A stretch of DNA of 64,000 bases from a virus (taxonomy: Duplodnaviria > Caudoviricetes): positions 1 to 64,000 of the IMG/VR virus record IMGVR_UViG_3300020336_000004; one strand, written 5' to 3'. The translations under genes and the position numbers were made by a program. The notes below the pieces were generated by a model that saw only the letters and a list, made by a program, of their open reading frames with translations, did not search any database and was not told the origin of the DNA. Position 1 is the first letter of the stretch. Each line of letters begins with the position of its first letter. Shown here one piece after another: positions 45,747 to 52,060 of the stretch.

Positions 45747-47039
45747 TCAGATTGTCTTCAGGAGTATAGTTTCAAGATTTATACGCCCGTTGAGCTTAGT
45801 ATCTGTAGTTTTTATATCATCCATGAACTTACGTAGTGCTACTTTACCTGCACCTTTAAACTCTTTTAATTGTTCTTCAGGCTTACGCATTGTCTTTTGT
45901 ATACTTTCTTCTTCAATAAATCCAATGATAGTAGTACCTTTTACTTGTAGTCCACTACCTGGTCTTTGCATTCTTTGCGGATCTGGATCTTTAGCAACAT
46001 ATTTTCCTATCTTTCGAGTCTTAGTATTAAAGACCCAAAGCTCATTTGCGTATATAATGTCTGCAGGATTAATACTTACTAGATTATATTTGTCATCTTG
46101 TTTTTTATATTTAAGTTTAGCAACAAGTTTTTCTGCACTGTATACTTTTGCTTTACGTGGCCTGCGTGTTGCTTTAGCACTTTCAATTATCATATCACAT
46201 GCAACAAGAACTTTATCGATAGCATTACCCCATAACGTCATTTCTTTTTTAGTTCTATGTGAATATCCTTCTTTTAATTGTTCCCACATGTCTGCTGTAT
46301 GCTCGTCCATCTTTTTAAGCTGAGCAGGAGTAGGCATGTTTAACCAGTCATTAATTTCTTTCCACTCTGGTTGGAAAATGTCTTTGATCTTTCTAGCATG
46401 AGCTTGTGTAACTTTCATCTGGATGAAATGTTTTTTGATATCTAATCCGTCTATTTTAAATGTTTTTGGATCTTCTACAAACCCATCTAACCATATATCT
46501 ATTTTTTCACATGCGGAATATGCCTGTGCTAAAATTCTGTCTTGAATAGATATTACAGGCTTCTTGGCTTCTTTAGCTATTTCTTCATCTTTTTCTTTTT
46601 TAGCTTCTTTACCTGTATCAATAGCAATTTGAATACGTCTTTCTAAAAAGTCTATACTAGATTTAAGTTGTCCACTAGTACCTGGAAGACTATCCCAATA
46701 TTCAGATTCTTTGTTGCTTAGTCTAGGAGCACCCATCATATCCATACGAGCAACAATACTTGCCGTAATGCTTAATGCATGATTAGGTGCGGCTTTGACC
46801 CATCTAATTTGGTCTTCAGTATACTTGTCAGTTTGCTTCATCCATTCGTATACATAATCATACAAGTCTACACGTTTAAAGTGTTCATAGTACCAATCAT
46901 GTGTATGACGTCTAAAGCGATGTATTTGTTCGCCTGACCATTCTTCCCAGCCTTCCCAGCTAGGTTCTTTGAGTTTGGCACCCCTTTGTAACCGCGGAGC
47001 GGCTCTAGGTTTTCTCTTCTTAACTTTCGGTAAGGCCAA
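45747..47039 (-). CDS. Hypothetical T4-like phage protein
   Basis: 430 aa, TTG start with SD; promoter TAGACT-N17-TATAAT at 47072-47100. Confidence 0.65.
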   Translation of the reverse strand: MALPKVKKRKPRAAPRLQRGAKLKEPSWEGWEEWSGEQIHRFRRHTHDWYYEHFKRVDLYDYVYEWMKQTDKYTEDQIRWVKAAPNHALSITASIVARMDMMGAPRLSNKESEYWDSLPGTSGQLKSSIDFLERRIQIAIDTGKEAKKEKDEEIAKEAKKPVISIQDRILAQAYSACEKIDIWLDGFVEDPKTFKIDGLDIKKHFIQMKVTQAHARKIKDIFQPEWKEINDWLNMPTPAQLKKMDEHTADMWEQLKEGYSHRTKKEMTLWGNAIDKVLVACDMIIESAKATRRPRKAKVYSAEKLVAKLKYKKQDDKYNLVSINPADIIYANELWVFNTKTRKIGKYVAKDPDPQRMQRPGSGLQVKGTTIIGFIEEESIQKTMRKPEEQLKEFKGAGKVALRKFMDDIKTTDTKLNGRINLETILLKTI

Positions 47040-47115
47040 TTTTATTCTCCTAAAAAATTACGTCTACAAAGATTATATAGCCATTTGAGATAAAAGTCTA
47101 CTTTTTTTGACTTAA

Positions 47116-48435
47116 CTAAACTTTTTCGCCTGCGTCAAATCCGCGGAATGTTTTGAATCTTGGAAAGCGTAAACTGTACGTTCCATCTTGATTTTGTGTG
47201 ATAGCATCTGCTCTTACTTCTACAAGTTGACCTGGGATATTATCGCGACCAGTCCAAAACTCATCACGATTAACATCACTAAAGCCACTACCGACATTAA
47301 CATTAATTTTCTTTCCGTCATCAGTTCCTTCACAAACAAATGCACCAAGTCGTCCTTCATTTCGTCCTGTTCCTTCTTCAACATCTTTAACCTCCAATGT
47401 CACTTCTATAAATGGTTTAGCCTTAAGCCAAGCGTGAGTTCGTTTACATTCATACGGAGCATCAATGTCTTTGATCATAACACCTTCATAACCACCGTCT
47501 ACAGCCGCTTTATTAAGCCCTACAAAGCGTTCTTGTCCTTCTGTGGTGTCTAAGTCTACCTCTTCCCATTCAAGTGCTTGTACGTGCTTTAAAACGCTTC
47601 TATGATCCTCTACCCAGTGCTTAGTAATTTGGCTTCTAAAGCTCTGTGGCTTATCCCAACTACCGTTTTTAAAACAACCTAAAGGAATAGTATCAAACAA
47701 ATGTAATACTGCATCATCGTTTTGTACATTGTCTTTACGATGTACCTGTTTCATTAGATCCTGAAAGTTTGCACTCATTACTTCTCCGTCTAGTACTAGC
47801 GGATAAGGTACAGGATTTTCTTTAATTACTGTCTCAATCTCTTCAATAATGTGTCCAAAGTTATGAAACTGTTTTCCATTACGACTAAACATTTCTACTT
47901 TGTCGCCTTGGATAATAGTAATAACTCTTACACCGTCTAATTTAATTTCAATTTGTTTTTTGCCTACCATCTTCTTTTCATGGTTAGCTGAGTCATGTGC
48001 AAGTGAACAAGTAAAAGTAGGAATAGCATACTGTGGAAATTTTTTAGCAATCTTGTTTACAGTCTTTTCTGATACACCGCAACGTAAATCTTTTATTAAG
48101 ATACGTCTATAAAACATATTCCATTGTTCTGTAGTAGCAACACCCATTGCAAGTTCAATTGCATCACGTGCCGCATGACCCGTAAGTTCTCTTGCAATAA
48201 GTTTATCTGCAAGTTCTTTGAACACATTCCAACTTAGTCCTTGTCCTGTAAGTATATCTGTACGTTCAGGTACCTGCTTTACGCCAAATGTAACAAGTGG
48301 ATCAAGTGCCATCTGGACACCTTCGAAAAACTCGTCTAGTCCTTCTTGCATTGCTGATTGAATTACTGCTTCTTTAGCAAGACGACTATTGTCTAATTCT
48401 AATTTTTCAATTACTTGTTGTGGTTGTGTTCTCAT
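47116..48435 (-). CDS. ATP-dependent DNA ligase
   Basis: KLDGVR, LDGEV, GYEGVMIK, WLKAK, SLRFPRF. Confidence 0.95.
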   Translation of the reverse strand: MRTQPQQVIEKLELDNSRLAKEAVIQSAMQEGLDEFFEGVQMALDPLVTFGVKQVPERTDILTGQGLSWNVFKELADKLIARELTGHAARDAIELAMGVATTEQWNMFYRRILIKDLRCGVSEKTVNKIAKKFPQYAIPTFTCSLAHDSANHEKKMVGKKQIEIKLDGVRVITIIQGDKVEMFSRNGKQFHNFGHIIEEIETVIKENPVPYPLVLDGEVMSANFQDLMKQVHRKDNVQNDDAVLHLFDTIPLGCFKNGSWDKPQSFRSQITKHWVEDHRSVLKHVQALEWEEVDLDTTEGQERFVGLNKAAVDGGYEGVMIKDIDAPYECKRTHAWLKAKPFIEVTLEVKDVEEGTGRNEGRLGAFVCEGTDDGKKINVNVGSGFSDVNRDEFWTGRDNIPGQLVEVRADAITQNQDGTYSLRFPRFKTFRGFDAGEKV

Positions 48436-48466
48436 GTGTGCCTCTGTATAAATTAATTATGTTTAT

Positions 48467-48495
48467 ATATTAGCACAGTTTGTGTAGTATGTCAA
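48467..48495 (-). promoter_or_regulatory. Sigma70-type promoter for the ligase, immediately downstream of the tRNA pair
   Basis: TTGACA-N17-TAATAT. Confidence 0.65.
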
Positions 48496-48501
48496 CTAAA
48501 A

Positions 48502-48595
48502 TGGTAGTCCCGGGGGGATTCGAACCCCCATCGCTCTCTAATCTGGAGACTGTGCCGAGTATAAGCCGGGTGTTTTACCGTTAAACTACGGGACT
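48502..48595 (-). tRNA. tRNA-Ile(UAU) with long extra arm
   Basis: Acceptor AGTCCCG/CGGGACT-A-CCA, anticodon loop CT-TAT-AC (48561-48563), T arm GGGGG-TTCGAAT-CCCCC, ~24-nt variable region. Confidence 0.85.
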
Positions 48596-48598
48596 ATT

Positions 48599-48672
48599 TG
48601 GCATAGGTGGAGGGAATCGAACCCCCATTAACTGGTTTGGAATCAGTTGTGTTACCATTACACTACACCCAT
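48599..48672 (-). tRNA. tRNA-Trp(CCA)
   Basis: ATGGGTG/CACCTAT-G-CCA, anticodon loop TT-CCA-AA, TTCGATT T loop. Confidence 0.92.
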
Positions 48673-48708
48673 AAAAAAAGCCCCTAACATTATTAGTGCT
48701 AGGGGCTT
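48673..48708 (-). terminator. Intrinsic terminator (attenuator 3:4) abutting the tRNA-Trp 5' end
   Basis: AAGCCCCTAGCA-CTAATAA-TGTTAGGGGC followed by T7. Confidence 0.9.
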
Positions 48709-48738
48709 ATCTAAAATAACTTTTTTTATAAAGTCATG

Positions 48739-48798
48739 TCAAGACATACCCCTTTTTAGTGGCCAACATATTATTCGTATTGTATTAGTCTTGATCAT
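48739..48798 (-). CDS. Attenuator leader peptide MIKTNTIRIICWPLKRGMS
   Basis: SD AAGGA, ATG at 48798, codons ATA CGA ATA ATA TGT TGG, TGA at 48739; its 3' end is complementary to the terminator 5' arm. Confidence 0.8.
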   Translation of the reverse strand: MIKTNTIRIICWPLKRGMS

Positions 48799-48824
48799 GT
48801 ATCTATTCCTTCTAGTATAAATTT

Positions 48825-48853
48825 ACTATACACTCGTTATTTAACAAAGTCAA
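48825..48853 (-). promoter_or_regulatory. Sigma70 promoter of the attenuated tRNA operon
   Basis: TTGACT-N17-TATAGT. Confidence 0.8.
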
Positions 48854-49083
48854 CCTTTTTTAGGGTCTTCCGGACGATTTTCTTGATCAGGATGCCAGTG
48901 AGTGACATCGCCAGTTAGAAATCCGTAATCACAATAGAAGATACTCATACCAGGCCAAACCTTGCCTTCTTCATCTTCATACAGTCCTCCATAAGTGCCT
49001 CTATGGGCACCTACTAAATCAAAGTAGTACCAACAGTTAGTTCCTACTTCCGGTAGTCTTTCGTCAACTTGAATCCATTCCAT
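48850..49083 (-). CDS. Small DUF551-like phage protein
   Basis: MEWIQVDERLPE...VTHWHP. Confidence 0.7.
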   Translation of the reverse strand: MEWIQVDERLPEVGTNCWYYFDLVGAHRGTYGGLYEDEEGKVWPGMSIFYCDYGFLTGDVTHWHPDQENRPEDPKKG

Positions 49084-49137
49084 AATAAACTCCTTTCAAA
49101 TAGATTATTGTGTTTGATGTTTATTATGGTATCATTT

Positions 49138-49515
49138 TTATTCGTGTTCGCCACCTGGATCGTTAGGATCTAACGGAACCTTTTTAGCATTGCCTTTTTC
49201 GTCTCTCCAAATAGTATATGTTCTTCCTCTACCGTATGAGTGATAACCGCCCATAAAGTTAAATGCAGTAGGCTTTCTTTTTGCAGTTTCAAATGTTGCT
49301 ACTGTGACAGCAATAGCACCTAATAGAAGTGTATGCAATAACATACTAAACACTCCTGCGTACATACTACCTACGATAATACCAAATACAACACACCACA
49401 TCCATGCTAATACTTGCATAATCATGTGTCTTGTACTGAAGTCAGGAATAGCACTTAAAGGATTTTTCTCATAATCCATTACACTATTCCAACAATCATA
49501 AACCCATTCTCTCAT
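49138..49515 (-). CDS. Hypothetical membrane protein (start MREWVY)
   Basis: Two TM helices; promoter TTGACA-N17-TAGTAT at 49547-49575. Confidence 0.6.
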   Translation of the reverse strand: MREWVYDCWNSVMDYEKNPLSAIPDFSTRHMIMQVLAWMWCVVFGIIVGSMYAGVFSMLLHTLLLGAIAVTVATFETAKRKPTAFNFMGGYHSYGRGRTYTIWRDEKGNAKKVPLDPNDPGGEHE

Positions 49516-49571
49516 TTTAAGGACCTTTCTATGTATTTTATAAACTATACTAGCACAGGATATGCTAGTTG

Positions 49572-49760
49572 TCAAGTGTTAAGTGAACCTACAGGCTTAC
49601 AAATATATTCAACTGTATCCCAAGATCCATCAGCAGGTATTTCCATGTATTCTATAAGCATAGTTTCACACTTTGCTCTAGTTTCAAACCATTGTACATC
49701 TTGTTCTAAGCAGGTTGAGCCTGAACAAACTGTTAATAGTATATGCCAAATGATTTCCAT
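49572..49760 (-). CDS. Small Cys-containing secreted-type protein
   Basis: Start MEIIWH with SD AAGGA just after tRNA-Thr. Confidence 0.55.
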   Translation of the reverse strand: MEIIWHILLTVCSGSTCLEQDVQWFETRAKCETMLIEYMEIPADGSWDTVEYICKPVGSLNT

Positions 49761-49775
49761 CTTGTTTCCTTTGTA

Positions 49776-49851
49776 TGGTGCTGGCACCAAGATTCGAACT
49801 CGGGACCTACTGATTACAAATCAGTTGCTCTACCAACTGAGCTATGCCAGC
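49776..49851 (-). tRNA. tRNA-Thr(UGU)
   Basis: GCTGGCA/TGCCAGC-A-CCA, anticodon arm CTGAT-TTGTAA-TCAG. Confidence 0.95.
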
Positions 49852-49873
49852 GTCATTTATTTATATTCCATTA

Positions 49874-49963
49874 TGGCGGAGAGTGAGGGATTCGAACCCT
49901 CGATACAGTTGCCCGTATAACACCTTAGCAGGGTGCCGCTTTCGACCACTCAGCCAACTCTCC
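49874..49963 (-). tRNA. tRNA-Ser(GCU)
   Basis: GGAGAGT/ACTCTCC-G-CCA, CT-GCT-AA loop, long variable arm. Confidence 0.95.
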
Positions 49964-49969
49964 GAAATC

Positions 49970-50389
49970 TTATTTGATGTATCGTAAGGTGTGTGATCTA
50001 CCGTCATCATCATAAAAAGTAATAGTGCTATGACTGTATACTTCTGAAGACATTTCATTATATCTAGTTTCAACAGTGCATTGTGTTCTAGTTCCACCTG
50101 TTGCGTTAGAATTATTATGTCCTAAAATGCCACCAATGATTGCACCTGCGGCGCCACCGTTTTCAATATTGCCAACATTGTTACCAATGATGCCGCCAAT
50201 GATTGCACCTTTTAATGCATCACCAGTTTTGTCTCCGTTAACGTTTACGTCACGGCACACTTCTACACTATACGGTGTTTGACTAATTACAATTTTATAA
50301 TGATCTGTAATTGTACCTGTAGTACTGTAGGCATTTGCAGAGGTTGCAAACAATGCAAACATTCCTGCTATAATTAATTTTTTATTCAA
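49970..50389 (-). CDS. Secreted glycine-zipper protein
   Basis: Signal peptide, GAIIGGIIG...GAAGAIIGGILG. Confidence 0.75.
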   Translation of the reverse strand: MNKKLIIAGMFALFATSANAYSTTGTITDHYKIVISQTPYSVEVCRDVNVNGDKTGDALKGAIIGGIIGNNVGNIENGGAAGAIIGGILGHNNSNATGGTRTQCTVETRYNEMSSEVYSHSTITFYDDDGRSHTLRYIK

Positions 50390-50393
50390 GACT

Positions 50394-50789
50394 TTATCCT
50401 TTCTCTAGAATTTGGCCTGCCTGAGAAGATTCGAACTCCTGACCTTCTGGTTCGTAGCCAGACGCTCTATCCAGCTGAGCTACAGGCAGTACTGTTTGGA
50501 CTCGATCGTATTTAAATGATCTCCATCCTTTTGCATTAAGGTCCCACACGGTAATTGTACCTTGTTTTGGTTCCTTATCTGATTTTGGTTGATTTTCTTT
50601 TGGAATTATGTCAAAACTTTTTGTGCAAGTCATTACACGTTTGTCACCGTCAAGTTTTAGAAACGTTACTTCCTGTGTTGTTTCTCTTAACAGTTGGATC
50701 AGTTCTTTTTCTGTTGGAATCCCTTTCATGGTTGCTATTGCTTCTTCCACCAAAGATTTCTCCCCAGTTGTCTCTGTACTTTGCATCAT
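50394..50789 (-). CDS. WYL_2/SH3-like phage protein with tRNA-derived C-terminal tail
   Basis: VTFLKLDGDKRVMTCT...VWDLNAKGWRSFKYDRV; start position uncertain. Confidence 0.7.
   Translation of the reverse strand: MMQSTETTGEKSLVEEAIATMKGIPTEKELIQLLRETTQEVTFLKLDGDKRVMTCTKSFDIIPKENQPKSDKEPKQGTITVWDLNAKGWRSFKYDRVQTVLPVAQLDRASGYEPEGQEFESSQAGQILEKG
50413..50489 (-). tRNA. tRNA-Arg(ACG), nested within a CDS
   Basis: CTGCCTG/CAGGCAG-G-CCA, TCTGG-CT-ACG-AA-CCAGA. Confidence 0.92.
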
Positions 50790-50834
50790 CTTGTCCTTTT
50801 CTTCTACCACTACCTTTTCCTCCTTGCCATTGGC

Positions 50835-51047
50835 TCATAGTTCTTCTACAATACCTAATACTTCTGCAATAATTAGTAATGCACCTGCAACCATAACCCA
50901 AACACCCCATTCTTCAAGGTACCAGCCGGCTACAAGAAATGCTCCACCTGCGGCAATACGTACTGCACTTTTAACAAGGCTAACGTAAAAATGAAATAGA
51001 CTAGGATCTTTTGCGGCTGGAATAATTATTTTTTCTGGAATTGGCAT
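50835..51047 (-). CDS. Small membrane protein
   Basis: HFYVSLVKSAVRI...AEVLGIVEEL. Confidence 0.6.
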   Translation of the reverse strand: MPIPEKIIIPAAKDPSLFHFYVSLVKSAVRIAAGGAFLVAGWYLEEWGVWVMVAGALLIIAEVLGIVEEL

Positions 51048-51631
51048 TATCTACTCTCCATAATTTTATCTGCAAGGCCATAATTAACTGCTTCGCTGGC
51101 ACTCATAAAGTTATCTCTATCCATATCTGCTTCAAGTGTAGCATAACTTTGTCCTGTATGCTTTTCGTACAGTTTAGTTAATGTTTCTTTCCAATACTGT
51201 AGTTCTTTATATTGAATTTCAACGTCACTTGCTTGACCTTGTGTTCCACCAAGGGGTTGATGAATCATATGCCTACTGTGAGGAAGGACAACTCTTTTAC
51301 CTTTTGCACCTGCACTGGCTAAGAAACTGCCCATACTAGCGGCTTGTCCCATTACAATAGTACTAACTGGACTTTTAATAAATTGCATAGTATCGTAGAT
51401 ACTCATACCAGCAGTAACAGATCCGCCCGGACTATTAATATAAAAGTTGATAGTCTTCTCCGGGTTTTGGCTTTCTAAGAAAAGCATTTGCGATACAATT
51501 AAACTAGCAGATGCACTATTCACATCTGTGTCTAACATTATAATACGATCTTTTAATAATCTGCTATAAATGTCGTAGCTTCTTTCACCACGGCTTTCTT
51601 TTTCAATTACTACAGGTACTAAGTTAGGCAT
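51047..51631 (-). CDS. clpP: ClpP protease proteolytic subunit
   Basis: [25 protein letters not shown] (Ser), MIHQP (His), DRD. Confidence 0.97.
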
Positions 51632-51827
51632 TGGATGTCATCTCTGTTTTAACTAAAGGAGTAACTGTAGAAACATCATTATAGTCTCCATCCTTTAAAA
51701 ATTGTCTTGTTGTAATTTCCTGCCTAAGCATTCCATCTTTGATACGGTAAGTAATAAGTTCTTGCTTAATTACTCCGCTTGTTGGTTTGGATAATGCGTC
51801 CAAGTATGGACCTTCTTTGATTTCCAT
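51624..51827 (-). CDS. Hypothetical protein
   Basis: 67 aa, coupled to neighbours. Confidence 0.55.
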
Positions 51828-52060
51828 TAAATTCTCCCGTTATAACGTTTTGCTATTTGTTTAGGTCCTGGTGTAGTAAACTCCATTCCCATTTTATTGC
51901 CTACATAAACTCTGCCGTTGTATTTGCAGTAAATTTTGTTTCCTGCAACATATGCATTTAATCCATCTTCGGCCTTAAAATTATCTATTTCAGCCTCAAC
52001 TACTTTGTCGTTGTCTGTACAAGTTAGTTGCACTCGATTGTCATAATATGCATTTGTCAT
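51827..52060 (-). CDS. Hypothetical protein
   Basis: 77 aa; promoter TTGACA-N17-TATAAT at 52082-52110. Confidence 0.6.
   Translation of the reverse strand: MTNAYYDNRVQLTCTDNDKVVEAEIDNFKAEDGLNAYVAGNKIYCKYNGRVYVGNKMGMEFTTPGPKQIAKRYNGRI

Follow-up and report, generated by a model that had tools for sequence, protein, structure and literature searches.

The window analysed here is a stretch of 64,000 nucleotides (nt) that forms part of a 95.9-kb IMG/VR virus record from an uncultured marine phage. On its minus strand, a leader of about 150 nt lies directly ahead of a gene for a transfer RNA (tRNA) for tryptophan, tRNA-Trp(CCA), and a putative tRNA-Ile(UAU). It appears that this leader is a working ribosome-mediated (leader-peptide) transcription attenuator and senses the supply of the tRNAs that the phage itself encodes, a reading whose probability is put at roughly four in five on comparative and thermodynamic grounds. 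In other words, production of these tRNAs is probably limited to times when ribosomes slow at the matching codons. Textbooks describe leader-peptide attenuation for genes of amino-acid biosynthesis and for synthetase genes. No account of leader-peptide attenuation of tRNA genes was found, cellular or viral, and the tRNA targets are what is new. Nor did this element turn up in the literature searched, in which the papers on pelagimyophages and on Melnitz were read.

Relatives of the element were gathered in three ways: by comparing the protein of the downstream ligase gene with IMG/VR, by searching IMG/VR with the leader pattern, and by searching metagenome contigs with the same pattern. The leader, made up of a promoter, a Shine-Dalgarno (SD) sequence, an open reading frame (ORF) of 15-22 codons, helices 1:2, 2:3 and 3:4, and a U-tract (Table 1), was found in 234 instances across IMG/VR and metagenome contigs. 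A first set comprised 72 distinct leaders (alignment A1), and overall there were 93 distinct complete leader/cluster combinations. The first gene past the leader is tRNA-Trp in every called instance except one (L149). The tRNAs that come after tRNA-Trp vary by phage and include Pro, Cys, Gln, Ser(UGA), Tyr, Ile(UAU), CAU, Gly(UCC), Arg, Glu, and Lys.

Leader codons follow the downstream tRNA genes

A preliminary description of this DNA, made from the window alone, led to the expectation that leader codons co-vary with the anticodons downstream, and they were found to do so. In the first set, with Trp excluded, 189 leader codons were cognate to downstream tRNAs, compared with 115 +/- 7 after permutation (z = 10.1). 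Several apparent mismatches were explained when the missing tRNA was located 175-600 nt farther on. With tRNA gaps of up to 700 nt allowed, the pooled set of 93 leader/cluster pairs gave z = 12.0, and the 39 leader ORFs outside the first set replicated the result on their own (z = 5.1).

The control codons are flanked on both sides by a backbone that consists of the promoter, regions 2-4, and tRNA-Trp. Permutation restricted to groups of similar backbone still gave z = 8.0, 5.2, and 2.9 (p = 0.0004 for the last of these), and contrasts between nearest neighbours went in the predicted direction 12 times and in the opposite direction 4 times (5/5 as predicted for ATA). The true codon-anticodon assignment was outscored by only 4 of 362,880 alternatives, a result that speaks against linkage alone.

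The association is most easily seen for ATA. Among the leaders of the pooled set, a tRNA(UAU or CAU) lies downstream of 13 of the 14 that have at least two ATA codons, 1 of the 11 that have one, and none of the 68 that have no ATA. Cys, Tyr, Gln, Ser-TCN, Ser-AGY, Gly, and Arg(ACG) were also individually significant in the pooled set, and the types replicated outside the first set were ATA, Gln, and Ser-TCN only. General codon usage is not the cause because the codons of the ligase gene do not follow tRNA content: ATA, Gln, and Ser-TCN codons are not commoner in it where the matching tRNA is carried. Per 1000 codons, ATA occurs 3.2 times with the matching tRNA vs 6.1 times without it in the ligase gene, and 166 vs 13 times in the leader. 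In the window, ATA makes up 3 of the 17 internal leader codons as against 23 per 1000 in the phage's own genes; TGG, of which the leader has one as a control codon, has a frequency of 10 per 1000 in those genes.

The position of the signal is also specific. It is concentrated in the codons W-7 to W-1, which precede the invariant TGG, where z rises to as much as 8. At W+2 and W+3 the signal is only weak, and the four codons within region 2 show none. From the first base of TGG to the start of the G-run in region 2 there are 10-21 nt. This spacing means that a ribosome paused with a control codon in its A site would leave region 2 free, and a ribosome at the stop codon would cover it.

Could such a leader sense something simpler? 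One possibility is that the attenuator is real but senses general translation or coupling, or Trp decoding only, and that the other matched codons are leftovers. TGG together with tRNA-Trp is indeed the sole invariant pair, and Cys and Pro codons persist where the matching tRNA genes are absent. TGT, and likewise the CCN codon that follows TGG, hardly changes across the family, whichever tRNAs lie downstream. In 56 of 71 free leaders, the predicted fold pairs the CC directly after TGG with the G-run; this pairing may be structural and not a matter of sensing, and may be the reason that CCN stays regardless of tRNA-Pro. However, ATA, Gln, Ser-TCN, and Tyr codons shift with the tRNA set, even between near-identical backbones, and the shifts are specific to the stretch just upstream of TGG. 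Leftovers would not follow both the gain and the loss of tRNA genes. This explanation is therefore considered unlikely, with a chance well below that of a sensor of several codons.

Translation of the leader ORF

Evidence that the leader is translated comes from the maintenance of its reading frame. The distance between the start and stop anchors is a multiple of three in 71 of the 72 distinct leaders, which fall into six length classes of 51-66 nt, and the single exception has an earlier in-frame stop. An SD-like motif precedes the start in 70/72, and the start codon is ATG in 57 and GTG in 15 distinct upstream regions. The stop triplet lies within GTCTTGA or GTCTTAA in 71/72 leaders. Both ends of the ORF are anchored in structure, as helix 1 contains the start codon and helix 2 the stop triplet. 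The preliminary description had recognised in this region the architecture of a trp/his-type attenuator, and every structural hallmark of the leader-peptide class was found, the conserved frame among them.

The peptide itself is poorly conserved except for W followed by P or CP, and what is conserved in its 3' codons (G-G-M-S) is the nucleotide sequence, as part of region 2. A nascent peptide that arrests the ribosome in the manner of TnaC or SecM through a conserved C-W-P-P, and thereby senses a small molecule or EF-P, would account for the fact that W and then P or CP are almost invariant as amino acids and are encoded by the synonymous codons CCA, CCG, and CCT. But the residues upstream of W vary freely, with tRNA content and without a kept motif, and the variants WPL, WPS, WCT, and WCL occur. 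Unlike TnaC-type arrest leaders, the phage leader ends in an intrinsic terminator and not a Rho-dependent site. Arrest by the peptide is thus a very improbable explanation.

Alternative helices of the leader

All the features listed in the preliminary description, namely the promoter, SD, ORF, helices, terminator, and tRNAs, were present at the positions it gave (Table 1). In the window, helix 1:2 joins 48799-48788 with GTCTTGA-CATG at 48745-48735 through 11 pairs (-15.1 kcal/mol alone), and helix 2:3, the antiterminator, joins 48753-48730 with 48723-48701 through 21 pairs (-21.2 kcal/mol). The terminator stem alone has -19.0 kcal/mol. The 148-nt leader has a predicted fold of -36.5 kcal/mol, and none of 200 dinucleotide shuffles was as stable (z = -4.3). 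Its minimum-energy structure consists of helix 1:2, formed between the start-codon region and GTCTTGACATG, plus the terminator. Across the family, the ribosome-free predicted folds contain helix 1:2 in 67/71 leaders and the terminator in 71/71.

Table 1. Coordinates of the leader, the tRNA genes behind it, and the adjoining ligase promoter in the window
Feature	Position	Strand	Details
Sigma-70-type promoter, TTGACT-N17-TATAGT	48825-48853	minus	Promoter scan; TTGACT 48853-48848, TATAGT 48830-48825
Shine-Dalgarno sequence, AAGGA	48807-48811	minus	Spacing to ATG (48798) 8 nt; read off the sequence
Leader ORF, 19 codons + TGA, peptide MIKTNTIRIICWPLKRGMS	48739-48798	minus	
Control codons 7-12, ATA CGA ATA ATA TGT TGG	48763-48780	minus	
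Region 1, 5' arm of helix 1:2 with the start codon inside	48788-48799	minus	CATG-A-TCAAGAC
Region 2, G-run + GTCTTGACATGACTTT with the stop codon inside; partner is region 1 or region 3	48730-48753	minus	
Region 3, 3' arm of the antiterminator, overlapping the 5' arm of the terminator	48701-48723	minus	
Intrinsic terminator (3:4), 12-pair GC-rich stem + U7	48673-48708	minus	Hairpin 48708-48678, U7 48679-48673
tRNA-Trp(CCA), putative first regulated gene	48599-48672	minus	Begins on the base next to the U-tract
tRNA-Ile(UAU), putative, 94 nt, long extra arm	48502-48595	minus	3 nt past tRNA-Trp; 58 bits, Rfam tRNA model
Separate promoter of the ligase gene, TTGACA-N17-TAATAT, at the downstream boundary of the unit	48467-48495	minus	No terminator before the promoter

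The preliminary description also looked to compensatory changes in the helices, and these were found in two of them. In helix 1:2, alignment columns 23/99 form AU in 56 and GC in 16 of the 72 leaders and are never unpaired; that is, the A or G of the start codon is matched by U or C in region 2 in 72/72. A leader's own region 1 and region 2 pair with a mean of -12.5 kcal/mol vs -10.3 kcal/mol for non-cognate combinations, the own pair being better in 94% of leaders, and a swap of the two regions between the ATG-type and GTG-type classes costs ~7 kcal/mol (~ -13 vs -5). In the terminator, 94% of the cells of the alignment are paired, and six pairs have changed on both sides. The antiterminator 2:3 has 89% of its cells paired vs 41-58% when the partner columns are slid, and double-sided co-variation in it is weak. 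GGG, GTCTT, and A82 are invariant in alignment A1. The invariant G-run is paired with the GCCCC of the terminator 5' arm in the predicted region 2-3 fold of 72/72 leaders, seven of which reach this pairing through a differently built upper stem.

That there is no switch, only a constitutive terminator or insulator with a small ORF that encodes a micro-protein or arose by chance and tRNAs that come from leaky read-through, would agree with a terminator that is strong and thermodynamically favoured and with a leader that sits mid-array in some relatives (mid-way through a long tRNA array in L048), but is highly unlikely given the leader's own conserved promoter and SD, its maintained reading frame, a helix 1:2 that co-varies with the start codon, an alternative helix that would hide the terminator arm in every leader, and a codon-anticodon match specific to the cognate assignment.

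The promoter match TTGACN-N16-18-TANNNT occurs 24-32 nt ahead of the start codon in 53/72 distinct relatives. A second promoter candidate within the leader (TTGACA-18-TATTTT, 48742-48713) was rejected: the GTCTTAAC class does not preserve TTGACA, the base that varies in it changes together with region 1, and a transcript from this candidate would still contain the terminator.

Proposed mechanism

How would the leader control the tRNA genes? Transcription would begin at the early-type promoter, and a ribosome would load onto the 19-codon leader ORF. A ribosome that reaches the TGA inside region 2 would cover region 2 and so permit the 3:4 terminator to form, and transcription would stop one base before tRNA-Trp. 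When no ribosome has loaded, region 1, which contains the start codon, would pair with region 2, and the terminator would form again. A ribosome that is slow at the ATA, ATA, ATA, and TGG codons just upstream of region 2 would block region 1 from region 2. The freed region 2 could then pair with region 3 once this has been made, and the pairing would hide the GCCCC of the terminator 5' arm. The antiterminated polymerase would continue into tRNA-Trp and tRNA-Ile(UAU), and RNase P would then remove the leader. Since the tRNA products decode the codons that cause the pause, such an attenuator would work as a negative-feedback supply sensor. The triggers suggested in the preliminary description, namely anticodon nucleases, limited TilS modification, and starvation, are speculative.

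Several observations weigh against this reading. With region 1 masked, the terminator together with the upper part of helix 2:3 is predicted at -26.7 kcal/mol vs -21.2 kcal/mol for the full antiterminator. The terminator is thus favoured at equilibrium, and the decision between the helices must therefore be kinetic, taken during transcription, like that of the trp operon. Changes in helix 2:3 are mostly absent or one-sided, and its co-variation alone is not significant. On the side of the codons, neither Pro codons nor tRNA-Arg(GCG) showed an association between leader and cluster, and Cys was not replicated outside the first set (p = 0.10). In an independent-pairs test limited to well-supported branches, with few pairs for each, no single tRNA type was significant; the direction was as predicted for most tRNA types. 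In addition, certain relatives place tRNA-Trp behind a plain promoter without a leader.

The composition of the controlled unit is a further point. The preliminary description stated that exactly the two tRNAs that decode the control codons are controlled. The statement goes too far, in that CGA and TGT are leader codons without a matching tRNA in the window's unit. The phage has a tRNA-Arg(ACG) 1.7 kb upstream of the leader that is able to read CGA. It was also proposed that the unit consists of the two tRNAs only. The ligase gene does have its own promoter, but no terminator is present between tRNA-Ile and that promoter, so a limit of two tRNAs is not established, and the ligase gene may also be affected.

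Comparison with known systems

The phage leader resembles E. coli trpL and hisL, as well as pheL, leuL, thrL, ilvL, and ivbL, in that a short translated leader contains control codons. It shares with the trpL class regions 1-4, mutually exclusive 1:2, 2:3, and 3:4 helices, and an intrinsic terminator with a U-tract. As in that class, the stop codon is sited so that a terminating ribosome would block region 2, and the untranslated state would terminate too. Unlike the trpL class, the element is phage-borne, the genes that it would regulate are tRNAs and not amino-acid biosynthesis genes, and its region 1 is the start-codon region and not the control codons. It is also without similarity to that class in sequence or to Rfam models. 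The only match among the Rfam leader families (Trp, Thr, His, Leu, and Phe) was to Thr_leader, with 22.7 bits vs a threshold of 55 (E = 0.56).

Multivalent leaders such as thrL (Thr, Ile) and that of ilvGMEDA (Ile, Leu, Val) likewise sample several codon kinds at once. In contrast to these attenuators, the codon mix of the phage leader changes between phages together with the tRNA genes that follow, and it includes a single codon species (ATA) and not whole amino-acid families. The leader of pheST (pheM) offers another likeness, as it attenuates a component of the translation apparatus with feedback via the supply of charged tRNA. However, the product there is a synthetase protein whereas the phage product is the tRNA itself. 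As a result, the phage sensor could answer to the amount of the tRNA in addition to its charging. The idea that tRNA-Phe genes of E. coli have an attenuator was rejected: pheV and pheU of MG1655 lie directly behind plain promoters with no leader ORF.

T-box riboswitches are similar in that a leader RNA reads the status of a specific tRNA and toggles between a terminator and an antiterminator. A T-box binds the tRNA directly, without a ribosome, by means of a specifier codon and the T-box motif, both of which the phage leader lacks. The phage leader has instead an SD, start and stop codons, and a frame that has been maintained. The T-box Rfam model gave no match at E <= 1 in 47000-52000.

Ideas on why phages carry tRNAs include the matching of codon usage, the replacement of a degraded host pool, and the evasion of anticodon nucleases. 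If a sensor is made up of the codons that its target tRNAs decode, phage tRNA supply would be set by measured demand, and a 150-nt element makes the question of phage tRNA expression testable. The leader could also be used as a small synthetic sensor of how fast chosen codons are decoded.

Unusual tRNA genes in the clusters

The leader also provides a built-in guide to the codons that unusual phage tRNAs decode. The odds are about even that it is a modular, fast-evolving codon sensor whose codons upstream of TGG are rewritten with each gain or loss of a tRNA gene, so that the leader constitutes a decoding record. If this is true, the tRNA(CAU) of some clusters would decode AUA as a lysidine-type tRNA-Ile2, and tRNA-Gly(UCC) would read GGU. 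The system would then be a tRNA-supply homeostat that could also answer the depletion or cleavage of host tRNAs.

Genes called Met(CAU) by ARAGORN (L182:8683-8757, L184:7072-7146, L195:1911-1985, and L112:482-556) stand behind leaders with 1-3 ATA codons and no extra ATG. The presence of ATA and not of extra ATG suggests that these tRNA(CAU) genes encode lysidine-type tRNA-Ile2 that reads AUA. A lysidine synthetase gene is reported in some pelagimyophages (PMC7029224). Of the contigs tested, only the two largest, L170 and L142 (G009, G010), encode a PP-loop ATPase of the family to which TilS belongs (PF01171), the fragments being too short to link tRNA(CAU) with a phage TilS.

The tRNA-Ile(UAU) of the window also occurs in relatives L020 (1625-1718), L025, L072, L090 (727-820), and L181. 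Its extra arm is 24 nt long and includes a hairpin (tctc-cagatta-gaga) that is identical among the relatives, with variable flanks. The gene is 73-77% identical to genes annotated as tRNA-Ile in the Lactobacillus phages LpeD, Semele, and ENFP1. A long extra arm is normally the mark of Leu, Ser, or Tyr tRNAs. An arm of this style on a 94-nt tRNA(UAU) puts the amino acid with which it is charged in question.

Clusters with tRNA-Gly(UCC) (L140, L182, L090, and L313) have a Gly codon in the leader just before TGG or a few codons upstream. This codon is GGT in L140, L182, and L090; L313 is known from its peptide only. In the first set, Gly codons tracked tRNA-Gly(UCC) less closely than Arg-CGN codons did.

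Source virus and distribution of the leader

Among marine myophages, Melnitz and HTVC008M (Kyanoviridae) have proteins similar to those of the window, one protein having 67% and 47% identity. CheckV puts a 275-kb relative at 77% complete, so the genome of the group is probably ~350 kb, in the range of jumbo phages. The leader is absent from the cultured Methylophilales phage Melnitz and the Pelagibacter phage HTVC008M. A tRNA-Trp call in Melnitz (L203:1501-1574; MZ577097.1 68570-68640) has no promoter, leader ORF, or terminator upstream, and its flanks resemble coding sequence. A collection of 50,697 phages held no record that matched the leader. In 596 Gb of bacterial genomes the leader pattern had 42 matches, about the number estimated for chance, and none of them had a terminator or a tRNA downstream.

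Metatranscriptome contigs from four RNA runs of one study were compared with 47800-49800. Contigs from these RNA libraries were identical to the 5' end of the ligase gene, the tRNA-Ile/tRNA-Trp region, and the upstream genes, and none extended over the leader at 48671-48871; such contigs carry no information on transcript ends or levels and may include DNA carry-over, and hence they are no evidence either way. In a contig of run X3 from a related strain, the tRNA-Ile region (48594) is joined to the upstream gene (48880), with 38 other letters in place of 285 nt. This contig is a structural variant without the leader and tRNA-Trp.

Two further arrangements were seen around the tRNA genes. An insert of ~80 nt lies between the U-tract and tRNA-Trp in L006 (2177-2253), and similarly in L020, L026, L033, and L067. 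Its ends are able to pair (tacactc ... gagtgta), and it matched no Rfam family. The tRNA-Arg(ACG) gene comes directly after the end of an ORF that contains WDLNAKGWRSFKYDRV, and in relatives this ORF also precedes leaderless tRNA-Trp-Glu-Ser clusters (50413-50700, minus strand; L002, L011, and L076).

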